Sequence record: OL744216.1 | Source of the DNA: Enterobacter phage vB_ExiM_F4M1E | Strand: one strand, 5' to 3' | Length of the DNA stretch: 64,000 bases | Shown: positions 13,299-64,000 of the stretch, in pieces | How positions within the stretch are numbered: position 1 is the stretch's first letter | How the letters are laid out: the number at the start of each line of letters is the position of its first letter | Position numbers and translations under genes: made by a program | The notes under the pieces: generated by a model | The model's database searches: none | What the model saw: the letters and a program-made list of their open reading frames with translations, nothing else | What the model was told of the DNA's origin: nothing

Positions 13299-13322
13299 TA
13301 AAAAACCGCCCGAAGGCGGTTT
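13299..13322 (-). terminator. rho-independent terminator
   Basis: aaaaaa then ccgcccgaaggcgg then tt. Confidence 0.55.
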
Positions 13323-14472
13323 AAATAACAAGGCTTGTGTCCAAAGGCACATAGGTATCAACCCTTGTCCCTCCCACACCGGGAAGAGTTCCTGCTGTCC
13401 CTCCTGAGTCCTGCCCTGTTCCGTAGAGGTTTCCGTCAATCAGCAGGTAAGATACTGAGTAATTTGATCTCATGGAGTGATAATCACCCTGTAAGGTGCT
13501 CGAAGGCATCGCCGTAAAAGAGTACCTCTGTGCCTGGGAAGGTCCCGTCCCTTGACTTTGACCACTGTTTGTCCCTGTGTAGTAAAGCACCCCTGTGACC
13601 GGATGGGTTACCCTTGCCGAGTAAAGACCTGTATAAATTACAGGCACGCCCTTGCTCCGATCGGATATGTTCTGCCACACCGCCGTCGGGTTTCGGTAAC
13701 TTGCATCACCAGTGGAACCTGTCCCCAGACTTCCTCCAAAGTGACGACCTTGGACATAAGTGGCATAAACAGACCCTGTATCCACAATCATAAAGACCCC
13801 AGTGTGTCCCGGGAAGAAGTCTTTTGTGATGAGGGATTGCAGTGCCCATGTACTAACTGCACCGCTGATAGACCCAGCCTGTCCGTAGTCAGACGACCCT
13901 GCCACATAAAAATGGCCACTTTTTCTGAGGAGGTAGGAGGTATCTGTGGAACCTTGGTCAAATGCAATTTTCTCAACGTCAGTGAAGTCATTCCTCATGG
14001 TCAGGGTTCTGACTTGATCGGCATTACCTTGTCCCAAACCTCCACTGTTATTCCTTCCACACATGGCGTACTGCCCATCTGTAAAGACCACAGCAAGAGA
14101 CCTGAACCCCAGAGAAACCTCTTTGATAGACAACCCTTCCGGATAGGTCATGTACTCAGAGACATCAGTCAGCCCTTGTATAACGGAGCCAAGGGCAGTG
14201 GGGAACATCTCGTTTGAACCCACGAACATCCACCTGCCGTCCTTCATCCTCATCAGCACTTGACGGTGAGCCATCCAAAAGTCTTCAACCCCTCCGGCGA
14301 GGAGGGTCCAAGTCTTGACAGCACCTCCAGTACCGCTGATATACAGGTCACCAATAACGTACAAATTGCCAGAATTTGCAAGTGCCCCTATTCCTGTCGA
14401 GGATGTCCCGATCTTTAGGATATTCCCCCCGGGGACAGGAGTTTTACCCCCTGCCAGCATAAGTTCAATCAT
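13321..14472 (-). CDS. RCC1-like repeat (beta-propeller) protein, paralog A
   Basis: repeated G-x-x-G-(Q)-x-G motifs (SGGLGQGN, YGQAGS, GGSLGTGS); N-terminus MIELMLAGGKTPVPGG matches the neighbour; ggagga SD before ATG 14472. Confidence 0.55.
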   Translation of the reverse strand: MIELMLAGGKTPVPGGNILKIGTSSTGIGALANSGNLYVIGDLYISGTGGAVKTWTLLAGGVEDFWMAHRQVLMRMKDGRWMFVGSNEMFPTALGSVIQGLTDVSEYMTYPEGLSIKEVSLGFRSLAVVFTDGQYAMCGRNNSGGLGQGNADQVRTLTMRNDFTDVEKIAFDQGSTDTSYLLRKSGHFYVAGSSDYGQAGSISGAVSTWALQSLITKDFFPGHTGVFMIVDTGSVYATYVQGRHFGGSLGTGSTGDASYRNPTAVWQNISDRSKGVPVIYTGLYSARVTHPVTGVLYYTGTNSGQSQGTGPSQAQRYSFTAMPSSTLQGDYHSMRSNYSVSYLLIDGNLYGTGQDSGGTAGTLPGVGGTRVDTYVPLDTSLVI

Positions 14473-14486
14473 GTCATCCTCCGATA

Positions 14487-15650
14487 TCAAACCAGCGCAG
14501 ACGTATCAAGTTCTTGGAACTCCCTGAGTTGCCCGGGAGGATGTCCCGGCAGAAGGCCGTCAGAAGTATTACCTGCCCCGTACAGCCGCCCATCGTCAAT
14601 ATAATACGACTGGTAGAAAGACCCACGAGAGCACGTCCAGTTTTTTGTTGGGTTCTGGGTTGCAACAGGCATCTCTGTGAATACCCCTAAGTATGCCCCG
14701 GAGTTCCAGTTTGGTGCTCCGTTTGCCGCAGAGTTATTCCCTGTGTGGTTCCAGAGACCATTTGTACCCCACACTTTTGCCATATACACCCCCATCACAA
14801 ACGGGGAATCTTCAATCGCCACAGAAGGTGCCGCCACTAAGGCCGATTGGGGGTACGCCGAGTTCGATCCGTTACCCCTTCCGATTGACCCTTGCGACTG
14901 GAATCCGTTGGACCAGATCTGGTGGTAATTCGGTATTGTTGCGTGACGACGACGGACAAAGAGGGCTTGGTTACCGCCAATAATTTCCGCATTCAGTGTG
15001 TGGGTGACAGTCGATATGAATGTCAGGGCGGTATTGTTGGCAAGAGTCCCTCCAAGCTGACCTTGGCTCCCGTTTCCCCATCCCCCAACCCTGCCATCCT
15101 CCAGCAACACATAAGTAGTATCGATGGTGGAATAATCCAGTGCAAACTGAACTATTGGAGATGGCCCATTTATCGCGCTCCAATAGTTCTTCCCTGTGGA
15201 GGTTGAGCCGAGACCACATCCACCGTTGGAGTTCAAACCCCGAAGCCTGAGCATACCAGAAGTGTATAGAACACCAATGGTCGTATGTGAGATGTCCCAC
15301 TGTTTAATTTCCAGCGCCCCGAGGATCTCCATTAGGCTTGTTACATCCGTTGGGGTGTACAGGTTTGTCGCCAAGGAGGCAAAATAGTTATTGACCCCCA
15401 CGAACATCCACCTGTCAAAGGAAGTCCTCCACAGGATGGCCCTGTAACCACATCGGAAATCGGCGACACCTGTTGCCAAAAGCGTCCACTCAGTGACTTT
15501 GGCTCCGGTCCCGCTGGTGTACAGGTTAGAGATTGTGTACATGTTCCCCGTGTCTGTCAGGGCAACAATCCCGCCATCCACTGTGCCAATCTTGGCTATT
15601 TTCCCCGGCGGTGCCGGGACCTTACCCCCGGTCATCATCAATTCGATCAT
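14487..15650 (-). CDS. RCC1-like repeat (beta-propeller) protein, paralog B
   Basis: GWGNGSQGQLGG-type repeats; N-terminus MIELMMTGGKVPAPPG; aggagga SD. Confidence 0.55.
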   Translation of the reverse strand: MIELMMTGGKVPAPPGKIAKIGTVDGGIVALTDTGNMYTISNLYTSGTGAKVTEWTLLATGVADFRCGYRAILWRTSFDRWMFVGVNNYFASLATNLYTPTDVTSLMEILGALEIKQWDISHTTIGVLYTSGMLRLRGLNSNGGCGLGSTSTGKNYWSAINGPSPIVQFALDYSTIDTTYVLLEDGRVGGWGNGSQGQLGGTLANNTALTFISTVTHTLNAEIIGGNQALFVRRRHATIPNYHQIWSNGFQSQGSIGRGNGSNSAYPQSALVAAPSVAIEDSPFVMGVYMAKVWGTNGLWNHTGNNSAANGAPNWNSGAYLGVFTEMPVATQNPTKNWTCSRGSFYQSYYIDDGRLYGAGNTSDGLLPGHPPGQLREFQELDTSALV

Positions 15651-55353: not shown

Positions 55354-57144
55354 ATGTTACATAATGACCTGCCTATTCTGTTTGCTGACTGGTACAAGCC
55401 GAGCCACATTTCCATGTACAGCAAAAAGTCTGAGATCGTACAGGACAACCTGACACCACGCTCAAGCAAACACTTCCAGCACTTCTCTGACAGTGACCAG
55501 CGTGTTATGTCTGCGGGTCTGCAAGGCTTTATTAAGTGGTTCCTGATTGAACACTTCAACCGCGAGTTCTTCGGTCGCCCGAAAGAAGAAGTTATCGGCG
55601 AGTTCAAAGAAATCTGTGACTTGGCGATCGGCCCGGACATGGTTGAAACGTGGGGCTTCGAAAAGCTGCATGACTTGGGCTATCTGCCTGTTGAAATCCG
55701 CGCCCTGCCGGAAGGTACACTTTCTCCGGTACAAGTGCCGCTGTTCACCATTCAGAACACGCACCCGGACTTCTACTGGCTTCCTAACTATCTGGAGTCA
55801 GTGATCTCCTCCGAAAACTGGAAAACCGTGACTACGGCAACCATTTTCTGGCAGTACCGTAAGCTGGCTGAACTGTGGGCGCAGAAAACCTGCGACAACA
55901 ACCTGCACGTCCCGTTCCAGATCCACTGCTTTGCTTATCGTGGTCAGGCTGGTACTCACGATGCGGCACAGTCTGAACTGGGTCAACTGATGAACTCTCA
56001 GGGCACCGACACCATCCCGGCGATCCTGTATGCAAACCGTTATTACGGTATGAAGGGTAAGTTCGTATCCGGCTCCATCCCGGCATCCGAGCACAGCGTT
56101 GCAACAACGAACATCGGCTTCATCATCGGACGCCTCCGTTCTGAGCATCCGGAAATGTCGCTGGATGACCTGCGTTTCCACGCAGAGGTCGAGTTCCTGC
56201 GTCGTTACATCACTGAAATCTTCCCGAAAGGTTTCGTGTCATACGTCGGCGACAGCTACGACTGGTTCCGTCTGATTACAGAGGGTGTTCGCATCCTGAA
56301 AGACGAAATCATGGCCCGTGACGGTCGTGTAGTATTCCGTCCGGACTCCGGCGTACCGGAAGACATCATCTGCGGAACACTCGACTGGCGCAAGATCGAG
56401 GATTTGGATGAAGCTGGCTCTCTGGAACGTGCTGCCGAGTGGGCACTGGAAAGCGCAGAAGAGGAAGTTCGCCAGGACACCCCGCACGGTGAATGTGGCG
56501 ATGAGACTGTTGAACGTTACTTCCTGTTCGATGGTGACCTGTACCTGATGAAGGGTGAGCTTGACTGGAACCGTTATGACAAGCAGTATTACTACATCGA
56601 CGGTAGTCGTGTCCTGTCTTACGAAAAAGCGGAACTGACCAACGAGCAGAAAGGCTCTGTTGAACTGCTGTACGATGTGTTTGGTGGTGACCTGAACTCC
56701 AAAGGCTATCGCACTCTGGATACCCACGTTGGCCTGATTTACGGTGACTCCATCACCGTGGCCCGTGCCAAAGAGATCTTCGAGCGCCTGGAAGCAAAAG
56801 GTTTTGCATCGAACAACGTTGTGTTCGGGGTTGGTTCCTTCACCACCCAGTTCAACACCCGCGATTCTCTGGGTCAGGCCGTGAAGGCTACTGGTGCGGT
56901 TATCGACGGTCAGCAGATCATGGTCGTCAAAGAGCCGAAGACCGACCTCGGTAAGAAGTCTGCACAGGGCTTCCTGAAGGTTGTTCGTGGCGAGGATGGC
57001 GAACTGAAGCTGGTCGATAACCTGCAACTTGAACAGGTTAACGACGCTGACAACGAACTTCGTGTTGTGTTCCGTGATGGCAAGCTGTTGGTTGACGAAA
57101 CGCTGACTGAACTTCGTGAGCGTGTCACAGCAAACCTGAAGTAA
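55354..57144 (+). CDS. nicotinamide phosphoribosyltransferase (Nampt)-family protein, 596 aa
   Basis: NAPRTase/Nampt-family fold; gaggag RBS before ATG 55354; track ORF 55324. Confidence 0.7.
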   Translation: MLHNDLPILFADWYKPSHISMYSKKSEIVQDNLTPRSSKHFQHFSDSDQRVMSAGLQGFIKWFLIEHFNREFFGRPKEEVIGEFKEICDLAIGPDMVETWGFEKLHDLGYLPVEIRALPEGTLSPVQVPLFTIQNTHPDFYWLPNYLESVISSENWKTVTTATIFWQYRKLAELWAQKTCDNNLHVPFQIHCFAYRGQAGTHDAAQSELGQLMNSQGTDTIPAILYANRYYGMKGKFVSGSIPASEHSVATTNIGFIIGRLRSEHPEMSLDDLRFHAEVEFLRRYITEIFPKGFVSYVGDSYDWFRLITEGVRILKDEIMARDGRVVFRPDSGVPEDIICGTLDWRKIEDLDEAGSLERAAEWALESAEEEVRQDTPHGECGDETVERYFLFDGDLYLMKGELDWNRYDKQYYYIDGSRVLSYEKAELTNEQKGSVELLYDVFGGDLNSKGYRTLDTHVGLIYGDSITVARAKEIFERLEAKGFASNNVVFGVGSFTTQFNTRDSLGQAVKATGAVIDGQQIMVVKEPKTDLGKKSAQGFLKVVRGEDGELKLVDNLQLEQVNDADNELRVVFRDGKLLVDETLTELRERVTANLK

Positions 57145-57150
57145 TTTCAG

Positions 57151-57170
57151 CCGCCCTTCGGGGCGGTTTT
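57151..57170 (+). terminator. rho-independent terminator
   Basis: ccgcccttcggggcgg then tttt. Confidence 0.7.
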
Positions 57171-57189
57171 CCCTCATCTGGAGAACAAA

Positions 57190-57381
57190 ATGAGAAACCT
57201 CGTTGCAAAGAACGACCATAACCGTGCAGCAACCCACCTGGATCGCTCTAAGGAGCCTTTACTCACCGTAGACGAGGGTTTGCTTGACTACTACGCAGAA
57301 CACGCTGAGAACGTCGCACAGAGCGAATATGCACGTGCCTCTGTAAATGCCCCTGGGTCACCCCTCCCACCCCGACGTTGA
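57190..57381 (+). CDS. hypothetical protein (63 aa)
   Basis: ggaga RBS. Confidence 0.45.
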   Translation: MRNLVAKNDHNRAATHLDRSKEPLLTVDEGLLDYYAEHAENVAQSEYARASVNAPGSPLPPRR

Positions 57382-57440
57382 CTATCGTTAAGTCCTCCAG
57401 TAAAATGACCATATCACTTGATTAACTTACTGTTGGACTT

Positions 57441-57692
57441 ATGACTCCCTATAAACTTACTCTCAGCTTTGTCACCCCCGATTACACTTCCGAAGAACAC
57501 TCTGAGCACTACCCCACACTTCAAGATGCCATCGACGATGCAGATGATTTAGCTTTCAGCACCGTCGGCTTTCCTCTTGAACATTGGCAAAGTGTTGACT
57601 TCGGTGACGGTAACCGTTTATACTCGTTTTACCCGAATGAGGTTGATAAGACCTCTCGTTATAAACTGGCGATTTTGAAGGAGGAGATTTGA
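57441..57692 (+). CDS. hypothetical acidic protein (83 aa)
   Basis: ORF. Confidence 0.45.
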   Translation: MTPYKLTLSFVTPDYTSEEHSEHYPTLQDAIDDADDLAFSTVGFPLEHWQSVDFGDGNRLYSFYPNEVDKTSRYKLAILKEEI

Positions 57693-57916
57693 GAAAGTTT
57701 CAGTACGTACTCACCGTGGACTTAGATGATGACTATCTGTCCCGAAAGGAAACCTTGGATGAACTTAAAAAAGTGCCAGGTATTGACATCAACAACCCTA
57801 TCTACTCTTTAGCCGCTGACAAGTTCCCGGATGCCATAGTTGAAACACTTAGCCGCGGTATTGGCGACTCCGGTGAAACAAAAATCAGTGTCACCTTCGA
57901 AAGAGAGGTTAAATGA
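57689..57916 (+). CDS. hypothetical protein (75 aa)
   Basis: ATGA-coupled. Confidence 0.45.
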   Translation: MRKFQYVLTVDLDDDYLSRKETLDELKKVPGIDINNPIYSLAADKFPDAIVETLSRGIGDSGETKISVTFEREVK

Positions 57917-58140
57917 AACAAGTCATCGAGGTAAAAATCACGGCGACGTTTGATTACGACAATCCAGAGCTTCTGGAACTGCTGAAGGCCAAGATGGTTG
58001 ACACGGGCATGACTGCCGATCAGATCCGCGCCCAAGCCAAGTCAGAAATCTTCGCTGGGTTCAAAGAACTCATTGATGATGACATGCGGGGAGAGAAACT
58101 TCCCGGCTTTACTTACACAGTGGAGGATATTTCAGTATGA
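57913..58140 (+). CDS. hypothetical protein (75 aa)
   Basis: ATGA-coupled. Confidence 0.45.
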   Translation: MKQVIEVKITATFDYDNPELLELLKAKMVDTGMTADQIRAQAKSEIFAGFKELIDDDMRGEKLPGFTYTVEDISV

Positions 58141-58226
58141 ACAGCACAGAATTGGTGATTGGTTACGGAGAAGGTATCCGTGACGAAGAAGATTTTGAGT
58201 TCTTTGAACAAAATTGGGGAGTCTGA
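58137..58226 (+). CDS. acidic micro-ORF (29 aa)
   Basis: MNSTELVIGYGEGIRDEEDFEFFEQNWGV; ATGA-coupled; paralog of the next micro-ORF. Confidence 0.3.
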   Translation: MNSTELVIGYGEGIRDEEDFEFFEQNWGV

Positions 58227-58227
58227 C

Positions 58228-58311
58228 ATGAAAGACGAGTTCGATTTTTTGACTGGATGGGGTGAAGGTATTGAATCTGGGTGTATCGAAGATGAGCGCC
58301 CGGACCTTTAA
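58228..58311 (+). CDS. acidic micro-ORF (27 aa)
   Basis: MKDEFDFLTGWGEGIESGCIEDERPDL; shares the G(Y/W)GEGI motif. Confidence 0.3.
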   Translation: MKDEFDFLTGWGEGIESGCIEDERPDL

Positions 58312-58462
58312 CCATCTGCCGGGGGCGGATGACCCCCGGAACCACGAATACAAGGGATACATCTGCCTTTGTTTTGTGTGCGGAAACAAATATCTTGGTC
58401 CAAAACGCTCGGTTATGTGCAATCTTTGTGCAAACGGTAAAAAGCCTGTTGACAAAGAGTAG
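58292..58462 (+). CDS. small C4 zinc-finger protein (~56 aa)
   Basis: CLCFVCGNK...CNLCANG; start at the internal Met of track ORF 58262..58462. Confidence 0.4.
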   Translation: MSARTFNHLPGADDPRNHEYKGYICLCFVCGNKYLGPKRSVMCNLCANGKKPVDKE

Positions 58463-58764
58463 GGCTACAGGTAATCTGAATATGTCCCGAACGAGATGAC
58501 AATCAAGTAGGTGGATGGATAAGTCAACCCGGTCTGTTAAACGACCAAAGTGCCATTGCGGTTCGGGTTGAGTTCAGCCGGATAAACAGCGGCTCCATCG
58601 ACGGCCTCTGGAATAGCGACGGTTGCTTCAGGTCTCACGACCACCCGTTACGTGAAACACGCTTTTGCTGGACGAGAAGGGGAAGTCAACCCCACGGGCA
58701 TACGTCCTCTGCCCATTTCTCCCTCCCCCGGAGCGTAACAACTACCGGACTTGCTGGGAGATTT

Positions 58765-58840
58765 GCTGGATTAGCTCAGTAGGTAGAGCGCCTCACTTGT
58801 AATGAGGATGTCGCGGGTTCGATTCCTGCATCCAGCACCA
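58765..58840 (+). tRNA. tRNA-Thr (anticodon TGT)
   Basis: hand-folded cloverleaf: acceptor gctggat/atccagc, D arm gctcagtaggtagagc, anticodon loop cttgtaa, T loop ttcgatt, encoded CCA. Confidence 0.8.
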
Positions 58841-58846
58841 GATCAT

Positions 58847-58923
58847 GCAACGTTGCCGGAGTCTGGTAACGGCTCTCGCTGCAAACGAGATGATCACTGG
58901 TTCGAATCCAGTACGTTGCTCCA
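58847..58923 (+). tRNA. tRNA-Cys (anticodon GCA)
   Basis: acceptor gcaacgt/acgttgc, anticodon loop ctgcaaa, T loop ttcgaat, CCA. Confidence 0.75.
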
Positions 58924-58924
58924 A

Positions 58925-59001
58925 GCGCCTTTAGTCCAATTGGTAGAGGCACTACATTCAAAATGTAGGGGTTCCCAGTTCGAATCTGGGAAGGCGCACC
59001 A
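58925..59001 (+). tRNA. class-I tRNA with anticodon CAA (Leu-decoding by anticodon; isotype uncertain)
   Basis: acceptor gcgcctt/aaggcgc, anticodon stem ctaca/tgtag, loop ttcaaaa, 5-nt variable loop, A73, CCA. Confidence 0.6.
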
Positions 59002-59010
59002 AATTATCAT

Positions 59011-59046
59011 GTAACCTATTGACATAGTGTAATTATGCTGTTAAGA
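59011..59046 (+). promoter_or_regulatory. candidate promoter for the embedded AT-hook gene
   Basis: ttgaca, 17 nt, taagat. Confidence 0.35.
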
Positions 59047-59073
59047 TGAATACACTAACTCAATGGGGGCATT

Positions 59074-59448
59074 ATGAGCAAGGCTGCGATTGTAACTCGT
59101 AAGCGTGGTCGCCCAAGCAAAGAAGAGAGCACAGCAATTGCCCTTGAAAAGGCAATGCTTGATCTCCGAGGCGAATTGGCCCGTCTGACGCCGAAGGCCA
59201 TTACTACTCTCGAAAACCTGCTCACAACGGGTACAGAGAAGGTGAAGGAAACCACGGCGAAGTATATCCTTGAGCAGGCGAAAGAGGTTAACAACCTCTA
59301 CACTGAAGAGGATAACGAAGACGACGCAGCAGGCGGCACAACATCTGCCTCTTCTGAAACTCACGCTGGTTCTTCTGACGAGATGAAAAATGCCATCCCG
59401 TTGACTACCCAGATTCGTGAGTATAAAGTAGTAGGCGAAGATGATTAA
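59074..59448 (+). CDS. AT-hook-containing acidic protein (124 aa)
   Basis: RKRGRPSK AT-hook near the N-terminus; acidic C-terminus; embedded within the tRNA array. Confidence 0.55.
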   Translation: MSKAAIVTRKRGRPSKEESTAIALEKAMLDLRGELARLTPKAITTLENLLTTGTEKVKETTAKYILEQAKEVNNLYTEEDNEDDAAGGTTSASSETHAGSSDEMKNAIPLTTQIREYKVVGEDD

Positions 59449-59454
59449 TTGGAA

Positions 59455-59476
59455 GGCTCCCGAAGGAGCCTTTATT
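59455..59476 (+). terminator. rho-independent terminator
   Basis: ggctcc-cgaa-ggagcc then tttatt. Confidence 0.65.
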
Positions 59477-59613
59477 AGAAGTTCTCTTTTGACGGGCACT
59501 TGTTAACGACCCGCAGCATGGCGTCGGTGTACAACGGAGTTTGATGGCGAGGAAGGTCTATAGGGATCAGCGCAGATCCTTGGATATCAGGTGAGCCGTA
59601 CAAAAGAGAATTT

Positions 59614-59701
59614 GGGGAGTTATTTCCGTAGAGGTAGCGGTGCAGACTGTAAATCTGTTGTCATTGCGACTCGGGTGGTTCGACTCCATCACTCCCCACC
59701 A
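59614..59701 (+). tRNA. tRNA-Tyr (anticodon GTA), class II
   Basis: acceptor ggggagt/actcccc, anticodon loop ctgtaaa, long variable arm, T loop ttcgact, CCA. Confidence 0.75.
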
Positions 59702-59707
59702 AATTTT

Positions 59708-59802
59708 AGTAGGATGGCTGAGTGGCTTAAAGCAGCATCTTGGAAAGGTGTCGGTCGCAGTGACCCTGCGGCCCGGGAGTTCAAATCTCCCTCCTACTGC
59801 CA
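59708..59802 (+). tRNA. tRNA-Ser (anticodon GGA), class II
   Basis: acceptor agtagga/tcctact, 3-bp D stem with long D loop, anticodon loop ttggaaa, long variable arm, G73, CCA. Confidence 0.7.
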
Positions 59803-59806
59803 GATC

Positions 59807-59884
59807 GGATCGTTAGCTCAATTGGTTAGCAGCAAGGCACTTTTAATGCCGAGGTTCGGGGTTCGAGTCCCTGACGGTCCACCA
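59807..59884 (+). tRNA. tRNA-Lys (anticodon TTT)
   Basis: acceptor ggatcgt/acggtcc, anticodon loop cttttaa, T loop ttcgagt, CCA. Confidence 0.7.
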
Positions 59885-60044
59885 GAAAGAAGAGGGTCCA
59901 AGCTGGTACTGAGTGCTAAAGCATACTCTAAGCCCAGATGGAGGCCACCCTGAAGTCGTCCAACTGAAGGTCCCTGATTGAGTAATACTTCCCCGCCTGT
60001 CGGGTACAGTTCTCAGTCACACCGGACGGGGCGCACCCAATTAT
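59885..60044 (+). ncRNA. 160-nt non-tRNA spacer inside the array; possible structured RNA
   Basis: no cloverleaf or TTCGA T-loop found by hand; GC-rich internal complementarity (ccccgcctgtcgggt...accggacggggcg). Confidence 0.2.
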
Positions 60045-60120
60045 TGGTCTTTCGTATAATCGGTTATTACGGCGGACTGTTAATCCGTTTATCCGGGTTC
60101 GAGTCCCGGAGGACCAGCCA
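60045..60120 (+). tRNA. tRNA-Asn (anticodon GTT)
   Basis: acceptor tggtctt/aggacca (T1:A72), anticodon stem gcgga/tccgt, loop ctgttaa, T loop ttcgagt, G73, CCA. Confidence 0.65.
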
Positions 60121-60158
60121 ATACTTAATCAATAGTCATTTCGATGGCTATTCGTTAA

Positions 60159-60236
60159 GTCCTGGTAGACAAACTTGGTAAAGTCACCACCCTTTCACGG
60201 TGGGGTTTGAGGGTTCGATCCCCTCTCAGGACGCCA
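60159..60236 (+). tRNA. tRNA-Glu (anticodon TTC)
   Basis: acceptor gtcctgg/tcaggac, anticodon stem ccacc/ggtgg, loop ctttcac, T loop ttcgatc, CCA. Confidence 0.7.
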
Positions 60237-60325
60237 ATCTTTTAGGTCGGTAGATTAATGGAGTTGTGGAACTCCACCGGGTTCCAACCCCGGCTCCGGG
60301 GGTTCGACTCCTCACCTTCCTGCCA
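60237..60325 (+). ncRNA. aberrant tRNA-like element ending in CCA (possible Trp-CCA or Pro-TGG loop; fold ambiguous)
   Basis: T arm gggg-ttcgact-cctc and 3' CCA are present, plus two 5-bp hairpins with 7-nt loops (ggagt-tgtggaa-actcc; ccggg-ttccaac-cccgg); acceptor pairing is poor (5/7) and the 5' half is 7 nt too long. Confidence 0.35.
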
Positions 60326-60327
60326 TC

Positions 60328-60434
60328 TTTGAGGTGTTACAGTTAAATCCTGTGTCGGAAGTGCGAATCGCGCGATAGCTGCCAATTGACAACGGGTAAG
60401 GCTGTACAGGACTCGGACTCCCATCTCAAAACCA
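60328..60434 (+). ncRNA. 107-nt CCA-terminated tRNA-like/ncRNA element
   Basis: ends tttgagg...tctcaaa pair 7/7 and are followed by A-CCA; no canonical T loop inside; hairpin tacag-ttaaatc-ctgtg. Confidence 0.3.
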
Positions 60435-60440
60435 AATTCA

Positions 60441-60516
60441 GGTCCTATGGTATCAGCGGTAAACATACTCGCCTGTCACGCGAGAGTCACGGGTTCGAAT
60501 CCCGTTAGGACCGCCA
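60441..60516 (+). tRNA. tRNA-Asp (anticodon GTC)
   Basis: acceptor ggtccta/taggacc, anticodon stem ctcgc/gcgag, loop ctgtcac, T loop ttcgaat, G73, CCA. Confidence 0.8.
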
Positions 60517-60520
60517 CTTT

Positions 60521-60596
60521 TGGGGATTAGCTCAGTTGGTAGAGCAGGCTCTTGATAAGGGTCAGGTCGCTGGTTCGAGTCCAGCATCCCCAACCA
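60521..60596 (+). tRNA. tRNA-Ile (anticodon GAT)
   Basis: acceptor tggggat/atcccca (T1:A72), D arm agctcagttggtagagc, loop ttgataa, T loop ttcgagt, CCA. Confidence 0.8.
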
Positions 60597-60599
60597 ACA

Positions 60600-60676
60600 C
60601 GGTGTGTAGCTCAGTCTGGTAGAGCGATTGCTTTGGGAGCATTAGGTCCGAGGTTCGAGTCCTCGTACACCGACCA
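60600..60676 (+). tRNA. tRNA-Pro (anticodon TGG)
   Basis: acceptor cggtgtg/tacaccg, D arm gctcagtctggtagagc, loop tttggga, T loop ttcgagt, CCA. Confidence 0.75.
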
Positions 60677-60682
60677 ACTTAT

Positions 60683-60757
60683 TGCGAGGTAGTTCAGCGG
60701 TAGAACAGGGGTCTCATACGCCTCATGTCGGCAGTTCGATTCTGCCCTTCGCAACCA
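60683..60757 (+). tRNA. tRNA-Met (anticodon CAT; elongator, initiator or Ile-lysidine type not resolved)
   Basis: acceptor tgcgagg/cttcgca (T1:A72), loop ctcatac, T loop ttcgatt, CCA. Confidence 0.75.
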
Positions 60758-60762
60758 GCTTT

Positions 60763-60840
60763 GCTCCAGTAGCCCAATTGGCAGAGGCACTTGATTTAGG
60801 TTCAAGTCAGTGATGAGTTCGAATCTCTCCTGGAGTACCA
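60763..60840 (+). tRNA. class-I tRNA with anticodon TAG (Leu-decoding by anticodon; isotype uncertain)
   Basis: acceptor gctccag/ctggagt, anticodon stem cttga/tcaag, loop tttaggt, short variable region, weak 3-bp T stem, A73, CCA. Confidence 0.55.
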
Positions 60841-60847
60841 CATTAAA

Positions 60848-60924
60848 GCATCCATAGTGTCAGTGGTCTAACACTCCGTCCTTCCAAGTCGGAACCCTCG
60901 GTTCGAATCCGAGTGGATGCTCCA
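60848..60924 (+). tRNA. tRNA-Gly (anticodon TCC)
   Basis: acceptor gcatcca/tggatgc, loop cttccaa, T loop ttcgaat, U73, CCA. Confidence 0.75.
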
Positions 60925-60964
60925 ATTTAATTGCCCGTGGTGATCGGGTTATCTCACCCAGTGT

Positions 60965-61040
60965 AGGGGATTAGTTTAATTGGCAAAACAGCGGGTTTTG
61001 ATCCCGCTAACGCGAGGTTCGAATCCTCCATCCCCCGCCA
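60965..61040 (+). tRNA. tRNA-Gln (anticodon TTG)
   Basis: acceptor aggggat/atccccc with A1-C72 mismatch, D stem gttt/aaac, anticodon stem gcggg/cccgc, loop ttttgat, G73, CCA. Confidence 0.7.
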
Positions 61041-61042
61041 AA

Positions 61043-61112
61043 CTAAAGGGTTTTCGAAATGGTAGCGCTGCCGCTCTGCAAACCCACCCGCAAAGCTGCG
61101 AGAACCCTTTAG
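61043..61112 (+). ncRNA. 70-nt hairpin element closed by a perfect 10-bp inverted repeat
   Basis: ctaaagggtt at 61043-61052 and aaccctttag at 61103-61112 enclose ~50 nt with sub-hairpins (ctgcaaa loop; cgca-aagc-tgcg). Confidence 0.35.
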
Positions 61113-61113
61113 T

Positions 61114-61189
61114 GTGGCCTTAATTCAGCAGGTAGAATCCCCGGTTGTGAACCGGGCAGTCGTGGGTTCAAGTCCCACAGGTCACCCCA
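61114..61189 (+). tRNA. tRNA-His (anticodon GTG)
   Basis: acceptor gtggcct/aggtcac, anticodon stem cccgg/ccggg, loop ttgtgaa, T loop ttcaagt, C73, CCA; no encoded G-1. Confidence 0.75.
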
Positions 61190-61194
61190 ACAAT

Positions 61195-61287
61195 GGAAGA
61201 TAGGGCGTAGTGGTACGCACCCGGATTTGAACCCCGGCCCGCTGTGGCGACCCCACGGTGATAGTTCGACTCTATTATCTTCCGCCA
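61195..61287 (+). tRNA. tRNA-Ser (anticodon TGA), class II
   Basis: acceptor ggaagat/atcttcc, 3-bp D stem, loop tttgaac, 22-nt variable arm, T loop ttcgact, G73, CCA. Confidence 0.7.
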
Positions 61288-61291
61288 ATTT

Positions 61292-61379
61292 AGAAGAGTG
61301 GCGAAATCGGTAGCCGCACCGGACCGCTAATCCGGGGTCCCCTCGGGGCCTGAGAGTTCAAGTCTCTCCTCTTCTGCCA
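61292..61379 (+). tRNA. tRNA-Ser (anticodon GCT), class II
   Basis: acceptor agaagag/ctcttct, anticodon stem ccgga/tccgg, loop ccgctaa (C at position 33), long variable arm, T loop ttcaagt, G73, CCA. Confidence 0.65.
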
Positions 61380-61384
61380 AACAT

Positions 61385-61460
61385 GGAACTGTAGCTCAGT
61401 TGGTAGAGCGGTTGCCTGAAGAGCAGCGCGTCAGCGGTTCAAATCCGTTCAGTTCCACCA
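61385..61460 (+). tRNA. tRNA-Phe (anticodon GAA)
   Basis: acceptor ggaactg/cagttcc, D arm agctcagttggtagagc, loop ctgaaga, T loop ttcaaat, A73, CCA. Confidence 0.85.
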
Positions 61461-61502
61461 AATTCCAATAAGAATAAAATATCTCCTCTCCTTCGCCTCA
61501 GT

Positions 61503-61530
61503 GCCCTCCCTTTGCGGAGGGCTTTTTTAT
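61503..61530 (+). terminator. rho-independent terminator after the tRNA array
   Basis: gccctccc-tttgc-ggagggc then tttttt. Confidence 0.75.
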
Positions 61531-61570
61531 TTGTGCTTTCGGTGATAAAATACCCGAAAGGAGGATTCGA

Positions 61571-62395
61571 ATGCTTGAGCTTATGGTTTGTACTAATCAA
61601 CCACAAAAACCACCACCAAGTGGTCAACTTTTTGTAAGTTCTGACCAAGACTACATATGGACCGTCCCTGACAGGGTGTTTAAAATCTCGATCGTCTGTG
61701 TTGGTGGGGGACAGCCATCTGCCAATATGGCAACCTCCGGAAAGTACGGTGGGGATCTTAGATGGACTAACAATGTCCCTGTTTCTCCCGGGGAGACATT
61801 GATTATCCGGACTACTTCCTCCACCCCGGCTTCCGAGACGGCAGGCAGAAGTTCTGCCGTATACCGAGGTTCTGCATCTGAAGAGAACCTCATCCTTCGG
61901 GCAGGTGGAGGAGGAAACTCCACTTATCCTTCTACCCTTCTCGGGGGCGGAGTAGGAGGAGGTAACGGAGGTGCTCCTTCGGGAAGGTCAGGAGGAGGGG
62001 CAGGCGGTTATTTGGGCAACGGAGGAGCCGGGGGCGGGAATCCTGCAACATCCGGCTCAGGCGGAGGAGGAGGAGGGGCACCATACACCTTCCAAGGGTA
62101 TAGTTTCGGAGGAGCCGGGGGCGGGGTTGGTGTTCACGGAAAAGGATCAGACGGGGCAGGCGGCACCTCTTCCGGAGGGGATACTGCGGGTGGGTCATAC
62201 GGGTCATATATCCAAGGGTCACCTGTATCCCAAGCCCCCACAAGAACCTCTGCCACCAAGCCAGGTAGATTTGGAGGAGGAGCCGGGTCAACCAATAGAG
62301 ACTTGGCGGCAATTCCGGGGTCCCCCGGTGCAGTAAGGATAGTCTGGGGGGAGGGTAGAGAGTTCCCTGATGCAGATAATGTTAAGGATGTGTAA
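61571..62395 (+). CDS. glycine-rich protein, paralog 1 (274 aa)
   Basis: aaggagg SD; conserved N-terminal module (MLEL...DYIWTVPDRVFKISIVCVGGGQPS), central GGxGG low-complexity region, conserved C-terminus GAVRIVWGEGREFP. Confidence 0.65.
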   Translation: MLELMVCTNQPQKPPPSGQLFVSSDQDYIWTVPDRVFKISIVCVGGGQPSANMATSGKYGGDLRWTNNVPVSPGETLIIRTTSSTPASETAGRSSAVYRGSASEENLILRAGGGGNSTYPSTLLGGGVGGGNGGAPSGRSGGGAGGYLGNGGAGGGNPATSGSGGGGGGAPYTFQGYSFGGAGGGVGVHGKGSDGAGGTSSGGDTAGGSYGSYIQGSPVSQAPTRTSATKPGRFGGGAGSTNRDLAAIPGSPGAVRIVWGEGREFPDADNVKDV

Positions 62396-63217
62396 ATGCT
62401 TGAACTTTTAGCAATGACTGGAAAAAAGTACGATCCTGACCCGACAGATGTTCAAGGTCAGGTTTTCTTCACTGCTACTACAGGAACTGACTGGACTGTC
62501 CCGGCTGGCGTCTACGCTATATCTGCTGTATGTATTGGGGGTGGTCAGCCGTCCGGATCAGGAAACATAAACGGTAGGGATGGCGGAGATCTGCGATGGA
62601 AAAACAAAATTCCAGTAACTCCGGGAGAGGTGCTGAGAATAAGAGCCTCTGTTGCAACAAATTATCTAACCTTTGCGGGCCAGGCATCTAACATCGTAAG
62701 AAAAGAGAGCGGAGAGGTCCTTCTTCAGGCCGGGGGCGGAGGAAACACTCAAGAATTATCAACCCCTCTCGGCGATGGTGTTGGCGGCGGAAACGGCGGG
62801 AAAGGGAACATGAGAGGCGGCGGCGGTGCAGGGGGCTATTCAGGGAACGGCGGTAACGGGTCAAGTAATGAAAAAGGGTGGCCTGGTACAGGTGGTGCCG
62901 GAGGTGGTGGTTGTTATTATGTCTACAACGGGACCACTTATGGCGGCGGCGGCGGAGGAACGGGCGTCCACGGAGAAGGGCCTAATGGAATTGGAGGTAC
63001 GGGAGGATCAGCCCCCTCTTCATCTGGAGGAGGATCAGGCAGTTGGTTCTCAACAACCCCCTCCGGACAGAAGCCTTTAAGTGCCAACGGACCTAATGGC
63101 GGCGACTTCGGAGGAGGCGCAGGAGGTTCATCCGGTTACAACGGGACCAGGGGTGCTGTCCGAATCATCTGGGGCAAAGGTCGAGAATTTCCTTCTACGG
63201 GGACTAAAGATGTCTAA
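62396..63217 (+). CDS. glycine-rich protein, paralog 2 (273 aa)
   Basis: start immediately follows the paralog-1 stop; MLEL...DWTVPAGVYAISAVCIGGGQPS ... GAVRIIWGKGREFP. Confidence 0.65.
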   Translation: MLELLAMTGKKYDPDPTDVQGQVFFTATTGTDWTVPAGVYAISAVCIGGGQPSGSGNINGRDGGDLRWKNKIPVTPGEVLRIRASVATNYLTFAGQASNIVRKESGEVLLQAGGGGNTQELSTPLGDGVGGGNGGKGNMRGGGGAGGYSGNGGNGSSNEKGWPGTGGAGGGGCYYVYNGTTYGGGGGGTGVHGEGPNGIGGTGGSAPSSSGGGSGSWFSTTPSGQKPLSANGPNGGDFGGGAGGSSGYNGTRGAVRIIWGKGREFPSTGTKDV

Positions 63218-63220
63218 TTT

Positions 63221-63583
63221 CTTCATTAAGTATAAGAGGTATCTGATCGGCATCGGGGTTGCGATCCTGTTGCTGTTCTCCTTTAACTGGTACGTAGGCA
63301 CAAAAGAGTCAGCGGCATATGACCGTGGATTCCAGTCTGCGAATATTCAGTGGGAGAAAAAGGGGAAAGAGTACGTGGACCTTATCGACAAAGGTAAGGC
63401 CGAGAACACGGCTCTTAATGCTAAACTGGCGAAAGTCTCTGAAGAAAAGCGAAAGCTGGAAGAGGCCCGCCGTCATAATGTAAACGACAAGCAGATCGAA
63501 TACAACAAGACTGAAGCCGCCCGGAAGAAAGGGTTGGATGATGATTTTGTGGATCTGTACAACGAATCCTTGGGGGACTGATG
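63221..63583 (+). CDS. membrane-anchored coiled-coil protein (start 63221 within track ORF 63081..63581)
   Basis: internal Met MSNFFIKYKRYLIGIGVAILLLFSFNWY (TM) directly after the Gly-rich gene; coiled-coil KLAKVSEEKRKLEEARR. Confidence 0.4.
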
Positions 63584-63895
63584 AGAAAATTCATTCTCGG
63601 AATGTTCATGGTTCTGGCACTGTCAGCGTGTAGCAACAAAGACAGAATCCCAGAGGTGGCCTTTAAAGGAACCACGGTAGAAGACCTTGTAGATAAGCCG
63701 GACCGAGAGTTGATGCGTAAGGCTCCACCAAAGCAGTACCTCAAGAAAGGTACAGACAACGGTGAAGGCGCAGTTGTTATAAGTAACAACAACTTGCGGG
63801 CAGGGACAGTCGAGCGCAGGCTCGAAGACCTCCAGCAATATGTCTGCAACCTCTTCAAAGACCCGGTTGGGGAAGTCTGCGAAAAGGGTAAGTGA
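63581..63895 (+). CDS. putative lipoprotein (104 aa)
   Basis: MRKFILGMFMVLALSACSNKD has a LSAC lipobox; ATGA-coupled. Confidence 0.5.
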   Translation: MRKFILGMFMVLALSACSNKDRIPEVAFKGTTVEDLVDKPDRELMRKAPPKQYLKKGTDNGEGAVVISNNNLRAGTVERRLEDLQQYVCNLFKDPVGEVCEKGK

Positions 63896-64000
63896 TTGTG
63901 CCAAAAGGCTCTCCATTCGTGGAGGGCCTTTTCTTTTGGGGCACTTTGTGATAATATACCTACTATCGACACATGTCAATTTCTTTATTCAGGAGAGTTA

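Follow-up and report, generated by a model that had tools for sequence, protein, structure and literature searches.

Polyglycine-rich domains (PGDs) are already known as adhesion modules of phages (PF21722; Pam3, Bxb1, Jabs and LSH1), and the polyglycine-rich or 'brush' domains of several siphophages are now regarded as such modules. The fold consists of a TNF-like sandwich from which glycine-rich motifs extend as a compact lattice, and the less conserved distal tip of this lattice has been proposed as the receptor binder (PMC9608196). For Klebsiella phage TFP_Y, mutations of host adaptation fall in the glycine-rich domain (PMC12671077). The present study concerns two adjacent genes, coding for GrpA and GrpB, in Enterobacter phage vB_ExiM_F4M1E (sequence record OL744216.1), of which a stretch of 64,000 nucleotides (the window) was analysed. 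We assume that both proteins are diverged copies of a small, free-standing PGD adhesin that docks on the virion, and taken as a whole chain this reading appears fairly probable to us. The genes, their fold class and family, the leader that they share with other proteins, the shuffling of cassettes and the operon structure are supported directly by the present analysis.

Several described systems come close to GrpA and GrpB. The tail fibre gp24 of cyanophage Pam3 (PDB 7YPX/7YFW), which has no detectable sequence similarity to the two proteins, trimerises and docks to the baseplate through a long N-terminal alpha-helical domain and requires the chaperone gp25. A second case is formed by gp33 ('tail wing brush') and gp29 of mycobacteriophage Bxb1 (PDB 9D93), together with the brush domains that siphophages carry in Jabs ORF65 and in the LSH1 hub; brush proteins of the Bxb1 type belong to siphoviruses of Actinobacteria, are encoded inside the tail cluster and use other attachment elements, whereas the phage studied here is an enterobacterial myovirus. 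The extracellular glycine-rich domain of ALK/LTK (PDB 7LRZ, 7LS0, 7NX3), which in a metazoan receptor tyrosine kinase forms the region that binds the ligand, inside a large ectodomain, is like GrpA and GrpB in fold only. The T4-type Gp38 (Salmonella phage S16, PDB 6F45) is likewise a small, monomer-sized adhesin with a glycine-rich scaffold and hypervariable loops that set receptor specificity, and its hypervariable segments between the glycine-rich motifs track porin specificity (bioRxiv 10.64898/2026.04.02.716166). The Gp38-type fold, composed of an N-terminal attachment domain, a beta-helix and a three-layer polyglycine sandwich, is not that of GrpA and GrpB; by analogy, Gp38 is nevertheless the closest functional counterpart of a free-standing PGD protein that would cap another virion protein.

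[quoted passage not shown] Deletion of this conserved peptide blocks incorporation into the virion, and its fusion to a foreign enzyme confers incorporation (PMC13352976). RBP2 differs from the case discussed here in the length of the peptide (29 residues), in the virus type (podoviruses), in its partner, a T4gp10-like branching domain, and in its cargo, a trimeric depolymerase; the putative cargo considered here comprises PGD, RCC1-like and LamG-like proteins.

Fold, family and variable loops of GrpA and GrpB

An earlier note on this DNA had described two adjacent open reading frames (ORFs), and both were found as described, on the plus strand (Table 1), together with the motifs that it had listed (MLEL..., WTVP, GGGQPS, GGDLRW.N..PV.PGE and GAVRI[VI]WG.GREFP). 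The paralogy that the note had read from the conserved ends is not confined to them. A global alignment of GrpA and GrpB gives 134 identities in 265 positions (51%; 37% without the Gly-Gly columns) over the whole length; BLASTP reports 45% identity across the first 127 amino acids only (E 3e-29), because its composition correction suppresses the glycine-rich part. The glycine content of the two proteins amounts to 25% and 29%, and all 19 invariant family residues are kept in both. A check for recent duplication or gene conversion revealed no long DNA repeats between the two genes; the duplication is therefore old, or the copies were acquired separately.

The family of glycine-rich phage domains that the earlier note had thought possible does exist, and relatives that carry Pfam PF21722 (Gly_rich_2) were recovered. 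This family is matched by 32 of the 63 full-length homologues that could be aligned with GrpA and GrpB (best E 2.9e-14), and the statement of the note that the architecture fits no standard family that can be named from sequence is not supported. GrpA itself matches PF21722 with 18.6 bits (E 0.002, model positions 3-225 of 226), under the gathering score of 24.3 bits. Both proteins fall into phrog_4474 of PHROGs (E 1e-54 to 1e-60); PF21722 and PHROG 4474 are both annotated as of 'unknown function'. A database search with GrpB yielded 541 homologues; many of these carry PF21722, at E values down to 1e-36, and some of the 541 are fused to LamG_3, cadherin-like or fn3 domains. The profile built from the alignment of 63 homologues recovered 7721 representative clusters at E <= 1e-3, and in many of these the domain is C-terminal or repeated in proteins of 500-5000 amino acids. 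A scan of GrpA and GrpB against NCBIfam gave no matches. GrpA and GrpB thus belong, as divergent members, to a large family that has a name but no functional annotation.

Structure models computed with AlphaFold2 from the family alignment were of high confidence for GrpB (predicted local distance difference test, pLDDT, 92.1; predicted template modelling score, pTM, 0.90) and for GrpA (pLDDT 87.5, pTM 0.87). Low confidence at the N-terminus is limited to residues 1-19 of GrpB (residues 1-9 with pLDDT <50) and to residues 1-10 of GrpA (pLDDT 59). In the models beta-strands extend to about residue 112 and are followed by about 140 residues that are nearly free of helix and strand, yet have a pLDDT >90 through most of their length; a last strand, AVRIIW, follows the glycine-rich region and in GrpB (residues 254-259) probably closes the sandwich. 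The region that the earlier note had called low-complexity is thus not filler but is predicted to be ordered. A pLDDT >90 with almost no helix or strand assigned by DSSP is what a lattice of extended strands of the polyglycine-II type would be expected to show, as far as these per-residue values go. Comparison of the AlphaFold model with known structures matched the tip of the Pam3 tail fibre and the tail-tip proteins of Bxb1, the same entries held the top ranks in Foldseek, and the TNF-like sandwich with a glycine-rich subdomain was thereby found in GrpA and GrpB. The predicted viral structures of BFVD gave 158 matches; the names among them include tail fibre, minor tail protein and baseplate component, and one match is the 'PE-PGRS family protein' of Erwinia phage pEa_SNUABM_47. 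A relation to a tail-fibre or structural protein family, which the earlier note had named as the outcome that would overturn its view of the pair, is therefore largely present, at the level of the fold. We consider the assignment of fold and family, taken alone, to be very probably correct.

Each protein contains 9-10 glycine-rich motifs, and the scaffold motifs, e.g. GGGGAGGYSG, are almost invariant. Variability among GrpA, GrpB and their close relatives concentrates in the non-glycine loops that separate these motifs; the variable stretches of GrpB comprise residues 81-100, 151-160, 171-180, 201-210 and 221-230, and in GrpA residues 201-230 form the least confidently modelled and most divergent loops of the glycine-rich region. 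The variable loops are rich in aromatic residues (CYYVYNGTTY, GSWFST and GSWFSTTPSGQKPLSANG in GrpB; APYTFQGYSF and GSYGSYIQ in GrpA). Invariant within the family are R256, W259, G260, R263 and P266 of the C-terminus of GrpB.

A leader shared by proteins of different folds

The region of the window is most similar to Certrevirus phages (Vequintavirinae), namely Klebsiella phage KaOmega and Enterobacter phage ENT3 (81-84% identity); next in similarity come phiTE and CB7 of Pectobacterium and CR3 and CR8 of Cronobacter. The earlier note had stated that nothing else in the window resembles the pair. This is not quite right, as the first ten or so residues recur on the minus strand at the start of two tandem genes for RCC1-like proteins (Table 1), which match PF25390 (E 1e-14 and 1e-10) and phrog_4219 and are unrelated in their body to the glycine-rich fold. 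In Certrevirus, Seunavirus and Agricanvirus, proteins of the PGD, RCC1-like, LamG-like and CB7_55 types start with the pattern M-x-E-[LM]-[LMI]; a short N-terminal peptide common to otherwise unrelated proteins, as would be expected of a docking peptide, is thus present. In KaOmega the leader is found on gp208 (RCC1-like, MLELMMSGGK) and on gp315, each a single copy, and therefore both leader-gene loci are duplicated in the window relative to KaOmega. A third leader gene of KaOmega, gp312 (MNEMMIVSS, with a weak LamG_3 match), lies inside the tRNA array (L001, 2130-2795) between tRNA-His and tRNA-Ser. The window is without a gp312-like gene, and its tRNA-Ser(tga) at 61195-61287 directly follows tRNA-His.

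In phiTE and CB7 the place of GrpA and GrpB is taken by a LamG-like protein, phiTE_203, that starts with MNELLLIG. The annotated start of CB7_251 is apparently 30 codons late, as the in-frame upstream sequence (L003, 3371-3460, KY514263.1) encodes MNELLLIGCQETETLLFNIPPVEGGGSKTV, the start of phiTE_203. As a glycine-rich homologue of GrpA and GrpB, phiTE_203/CB7_251 was rejected, because its body is LamG-like and only the leader is in common. CB7_55 begins with the leader MQEMMIVTSKPG, and its fold was not recognised. The glycine-rich gp018 of PVP-SE1 (MFEMMLATS) is encoded by a leader gene adjoining that for the DNA polymerase. In the Agricanvirus Deimos-Minion the leader genes are clustered (the glycine-rich gp116 and gp117, and gp119, assigned to LamG_3 by likeness to a protein of contig L011), and an equivalent metagenomic contig has the same gene cluster.

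Within the window 4 of 113 ORFs of >=100 amino acids start with the leader, against 0.5 expected, but with paralogues counted as one event each the probability of finding >=2 such families in the window alone is about 0.1, so that this enrichment is only suggestive. The case for the leader draws its weight from its recurrence in several genera and on four or more unrelated folds. In a set of 120 homologues of GrpB it occurs only in the 24 closest. Members further away have other N-termini, including short hydrophobic ones (MPIQQMLLGSGG...) and long extensions, which we take to resemble the N-termini of tail fibres. There are hints that a short N-terminal tag may be a general feature of free-standing PGD proteins. 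Alternative readings of the leader as a capsid-targeting or prohead-protease signal, or as a Sec or lipoprotein signal, were set aside by inspection, given the 5-6-residue hydrophobic stretch with a Glu, the absence of a Cys and the lectin-like folds of the cargo. In IMG/VR contigs (L013-L033) other small PGD clades have different short, hydrophobic N-termini that run into small residues (MPIQQMLLGSGG, MSIQQVLFSGG, MIHQLLFSS).

A leader of different sequence is present in the Rak2-like jumbo phage pEa_SNUABM_47 (Eneladusvirus; L039, MT939487.1, 344791-355058), where 11 consecutive genes, 00565-00575, begin with MLPFPII(S/M). Three of their products (00565, 00571 and 00572) have BLASTP matches to the RCC1-like proteins of the window, several of the 11 open with RCC1-type repeats, and four are annotated as 'DNA condensation protein'. 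The product of 00569 is glycine-rich and 43% identical to GrpB over 249 amino acids; that of 00566, the 'PE-PGRS family protein', consists of glycine to 32% and gave no BLASTP match at E <= 1e-3. The remaining leader genes have bodies of other kinds. The names 'DNA condensation protein' and 'PE-PGRS family protein' look misleading. CB7_37, an RCC1-like protein whose gene adjoins the tail-fibre gene of CB7, begins with MIPFAIIG and aligns with 00575 from residue 1. We conclude from this set and from CB7_37 that different phage lineages have leaders of their own, common to the same kinds of binding domain.

Cassette exchange and genomic setting

Genes at the GrpA/GrpB locus occur as three cassette types: A, GrpA-like with 274 amino acids; B, GrpB-like with 273 amino acids; and C, with 246-247 amino acids, a start of MIELLAISGTKP and 41-49% identity to A and B. 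The arrangement A-B is present in the window and in metagenomic contig L035 (99% identical), A-C in contig L034, the flanks of which are 97-99% identical to the window, and C-B in contigs L037 and L009; KaOmega has B alone, its slot between tRNA-Phe and the spanin genes being occupied by the single GrpB-like gp315. Overall, the backbones that flank the metagenomic cassette variants are 93-99% identical to the window. The exact GrpA sequence was found on 13 metagenomic contigs, three of them from separate sequencing runs, and is paired there with a gene of type B or C. When contig L034 is compared with the window, identity through GrpA ends at 62415, 20 nucleotides into the second gene and inside the leader, and resumes at 63228 in the spanin gene. 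Thus, the gene body has been swapped between near-identical phages, and the leader-coding segment forms one boundary of the swap. Such swapping is what host-driven selection on specificity determinants would be expected to produce, and it would also fit accessory adhesins.

The terminator and the strong Shine-Dalgarno sequence that the earlier note had placed before the pair were both located (Table 1), and the stretch upstream of GrpA, including the Shine-Dalgarno sequence, is also conserved in KaOmega and contig L009. The TAA of GrpA directly abuts the ATG of GrpB, and the final 8 nucleotides of GrpB overlap the start of the i-spanin gene. Because of these abutting and overlapping stops and starts we regard GrpA, GrpB, i-spanin and o-spanin as a single unit with coupled translation; in relatives the spanins are followed by the terminase gene.

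Table 1 Positions of the features discussed, in nucleotides of the window
Feature	Position	Strand	Remarks
RCC1-like beta-propeller, 383 amino acids	13321..14472	-	Same leader as GrpA/GrpB, MIELMLAGGKTPVP (MIELMLAGGK)
RCC1-like beta-propeller, 387 amino acids	14487..15650	-	Same leader, MIELMMTGGKVPAP (MIELMMTGGK); tandem paralogue of 13321..14472
Intrinsic terminator ending the tRNA array	61503..61532	+	GCCCTCC-loop-GGAGGGC at 61503-61522, then T-run TTTTTTATTT
Shine-Dalgarno sequence AAAGGAGGA	61557..61565	+	5 nucleotides 5' of the GrpA ATG; read from sequence
GrpA (cassette type A)	61571..62395	+	274 amino acids; predicted leader, TNF-like beta-sandwich, polyglycine-rich insert and closing C-terminal strand
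GrpA N-terminal leader MLELMVCT	61571..61594	+	Followed by Pro-rich linker; proposed docking peptide
GrpA glycine-rich region	61904..62329	+	Residues 112-253; 8 of the protein's 9 glycine-rich motifs
GrpB (cassette type B)	62396..63217	+	273 amino acids; architecture as GrpA
GrpB N-terminal leader MLELLAMTGKK	62396..62428	+	First 20 nucleotides form the left breakpoint of the L034 cassette swap
GrpB TNF-like beta-sandwich strands (predicted)	62456..62731	+	Residues 21-112
GrpB glycine-rich region	62732..63154	+	Residues 113-253; 9 of the protein's 10 glycine-rich motifs
GrpB conserved C-terminus GAVRIIWGKGREFPST	63155..63214	+	Predicted strand 254-259 after the glycine-rich region
Rz-like i-spanin (MSNFFIKYKRYLIG...)	63210..63581	+	ATG at 63210; one transmembrane segment; translationally coupled to GrpB
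Lipoprotein o-spanin (MRKFILGMFMVLALSAC...)	63581..63895	+	Follows the i-spanin

The tRNA array 5' of GrpA contains 18 tRNA genes, the last of which ends at 61460. Gaps of the array harbour two tRNA-like elements on the plus strand (59615-59696 and 60249-60320) that were not called by ARAGORN and that match the tRNA-Sec covariance model below threshold (about 33 and about 30 bits, where the gathering score is 47); both could be tRNAs of a degenerate or unusual kind. In phiTE the pseudo-ToxI escape locus lies immediately upstream of phiTE_203; a scan of positions 56000-64000 of the window with Rfam gave no pseudo-ToxI-like or ToxI RNA.

Proposed mechanism and alternatives

GrpA and GrpB each consist of four parts: a leader of 8-11 residues (M-L-E-L-[LM]-...) with a Pro-rich linker, a TNF-like beta-sandwich, an insert of about 140 residues in which the conserved GGxGG motifs would provide the scaffold and the variable, aromatic-rich loops the binding surface, and the closing strand GAVRIIWG.GR.FP. 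Both proteins would be expressed late, a timing suggested by the structure of the operon in which they are coupled to the spanins just upstream of the terminase gene. The leader would then plug the protein into a socket of the virion that is common to the RCC1-like pair (13321-15650) and to the LamG-like proteins of relatives; this docking role is proposed because the leader is common to several folds and is disordered in the monomer models, and because of the mass spectrometry (MS) data on relatives. Finally, the variable aromatic loops, situated at the tip of the lattice, would bind a component of the host surface and confer additional or alternative attachment specificities, as suggested by the fold relatives, the pattern of variability and the shuffling of cassettes. 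Two different copies would provide two specificities, and the cassettes 3' of the leader would be exchanged between related phages.

The MS data in question come from two groups of relatives. Analysis of purified CB7 virions by electrospray ionisation tandem MS (ESI-MS/MS) detected CB7_55 (4 peptides, 24% coverage), CB7_37 (4 peptides, 19% coverage) and CB7_251 (1 peptide, 10% coverage); the three were listed as 'unknown structural proteins', and CB7_55 was noted as being encoded outside the structural region (PMC7344957). In three Eneladusviruses, liquid chromatography-tandem MS (LC-MS/MS) detected the PE-PGRS protein of 25.9 kDa with 1, 6 and 13 peptides or spectra (10-28% coverage; text and Table S5 of PMC7760394) and at least two 'DNA condensation proteins' (PMC7760394). 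By analogy, GrpA and GrpB are presumably constituents of the virion as well. Of the functions that the earlier note had offered, an association with the virion is best supported, as a compact adhesin or receptor-binding module and not as a fibre; a secreted effector or another anti-host function finds no support, and a PADLOC search gave no matches that would point to a role in defence or anti-defence.

Beyond this single locus we tentatively propose a common 'plug', a view to which we give slightly less than an even chance: a lineage-specific leader of about 10 residues would dock small binding proteins whose folds are unrelated (polyglycine-rich/TNF-like, RCC1 propeller, LamG lectin and others) onto one virion socket, with the genes scattered, duplicated in tandem and exchanged as cassettes with the leader as boundary, in Certrevirus, Seunavirus, Agricanvirus and the Rak2-like Eneladusvirus. 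GrpA and GrpB would then be two plugs of a plug-and-play set of accessory adhesins in large myoviruses. A limited search of the literature retrieved no description of a minimal free-standing PGD format, of a lineage-specific leader common to RCC1-like, LamG-like and other proteins, or of combinatorial A/B/C cassettes.

Several observations weigh against docked adhesins. The genes lie outside the tail module; the RCC1-like pair is on the other strand, surrounded by small genes, and in PVP-SE1 the homologue is encoded beside the DNA polymerase gene. Unlike Pam3 gp24, the two proteins have just 20 or so residues before the sandwich, with no predicted helix, and there is no adjacent chaperone gene, the neighbours being the spanins downstream and the tRNA array upstream. 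Both proteins fail the gathering score of PF21722, with no reported match at all for GrpB, and searches of the PDB by sequence only, with the single protein or with the profile of 63 sequences, returned nothing meaningful, so that the link to solved structures came via fold comparison. The MS data were obtained with relatives and not with this phage, CB7_251 was detected by a single peptide, and the MS of an Agricanvirus crude lysate, an uninformative sample, did not list gp116, gp117 or gp119. The window does not include the structural module of this phage. A docking partner was sought in CB7: a Pfam scan of its tail-fibre, collar and baseplate proteins found Collagen, Collar, Big_2, Baseplate_J and Caudo_TAP, whereas a T4gp10-like branching domain was absent from the proteins scanned. 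A role of GrpA and GrpB in receptor binding and host range is suggested by the fold relatives, by the variability of the loops and by the shuffling of cassettes.

Proteins of the same fold and family could also act outside the virion, as soluble, lectin-like proteins that are made late and are either released at lysis or active on the envelope, where they could mask receptors on debris and neighbouring cells or aid the spanins in disrupting the envelope. The position of GrpA and GrpB directly upstream of the spanin genes and their translational coupling to them would fit, as would a location outside the structural module, or, for PVP-SE1, in the replication region; in addition, the single peptide of CB7_251 carries little weight in this respect, and the Eneladusvirus data stem from gel-separated phage protein preparations the purity of which is not assessable. 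Nevertheless, this explanation appears unlikely to us, as phage particle preparations of two independent lineages yielded several different proteins with a leader, a number of these being represented by 4-25 peptides or spectra, and as a leader that is found across unrelated folds is best explained as a common assembly address. Distant relatives moreover have long N-terminal extensions or make up the C-terminal domain in proteins of great length, relatives in BFVD bear the names tail fibre, minor tail protein or baseplate component, and neither a signal peptide nor a transmembrane segment is visible in GrpA and GrpB. If the proteins are part of the particle, they could still decorate the capsid, neck or whiskers by a weak, reversible (Hoc-like) attachment and not be receptor binders that determine host range. 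The proteins are small and have no trimerisation or shaft domain, and their partner folds, LamG and the RCC1 propeller, are general binding modules. Bxb1 gp33 appears to be a dispensable accessory: the related phage Hami1 lacks a homologue, and deletion of gp30, on which assembly of gp33 likely depends, leads to only a modest drop in fecundity (PMC12646305). All solved structural relatives, however, are located on tail tips, and cassettes are exchanged combinatorially between near-identical backbones, even if accessory adhesins would fit the latter as well; a purely decorative role is thus rather unlikely.

Two further explanations concern the leader and the glycine-rich region themselves. The leader could be a landmark of DNA recombination, a context for translation initiation, or a chaperone or degradation signal and no docking address. 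One breakpoint of the cassette swap falls exactly within the leader-coding 20 nucleotides, which indicates that the leader acts as a homology arm, and the Shine-Dalgarno sequence and its spacing are alike among the leader genes. Yet the leader is conserved as a protein through synonymous and conservative changes across genera (MLELL, MIELM, MFEMM, MNELL, MQEMM), and the wholly different MLPFPIIS plays the same organisational role in Eneladusvirus, which speaks for a lineage-specific fit between proteins and not for a nucleotide signal; a leader without any docking function is accordingly very unlikely, while the roles in docking and as a recombination landmark would be compatible and are not mutually exclusive. 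It is scarcely credible that the glycine-rich region lacks order or forms a collagen-like fibre, or that the pair is one gene split by a frameshift, as the earlier note had considered for the pair, and these possibilities were rejected. A glycine content of 25-29% with GGxGG repeats and the annotation of some giant-virus relatives as collagen-like would suit disorder or collagen, but there is no Gly-X-Y periodicity, the pLDDT is >90 through most of the region and the fold matches are to ordered glycine-rich domains. Each of the two ORFs contains the full N-terminal module, the glycine region, the C-terminal motif and the 19 invariant residues, and the exact GrpA occurs on 13 independent contigs with a B or C partner.

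Naming the glycine-rich domain alone merely removes two 'hypothetical proteins' from the annotation of the phage. The shared leader, on the other hand, would unite four genes of the window and dozens of genes in related and jumbo phages as one class of virion accessory proteins, which would explain the 'unknown structural proteins' that are found in virion proteomes and are encoded far from the tail genes, and would put right misleading names, among them 'PE-PGRS family', 'DNA condensation protein' and 'regulator of chromosome condensation'. The A, B and C variants in near-identical backbones represent a natural experiment for the mapping of specificity. Should the leader prove to be a docking address that can be transferred, it would, comparable to the conserved peptide of the Klebsiella podophages, provide a simple handle to add or exchange host-binding modules on large myoviruses.

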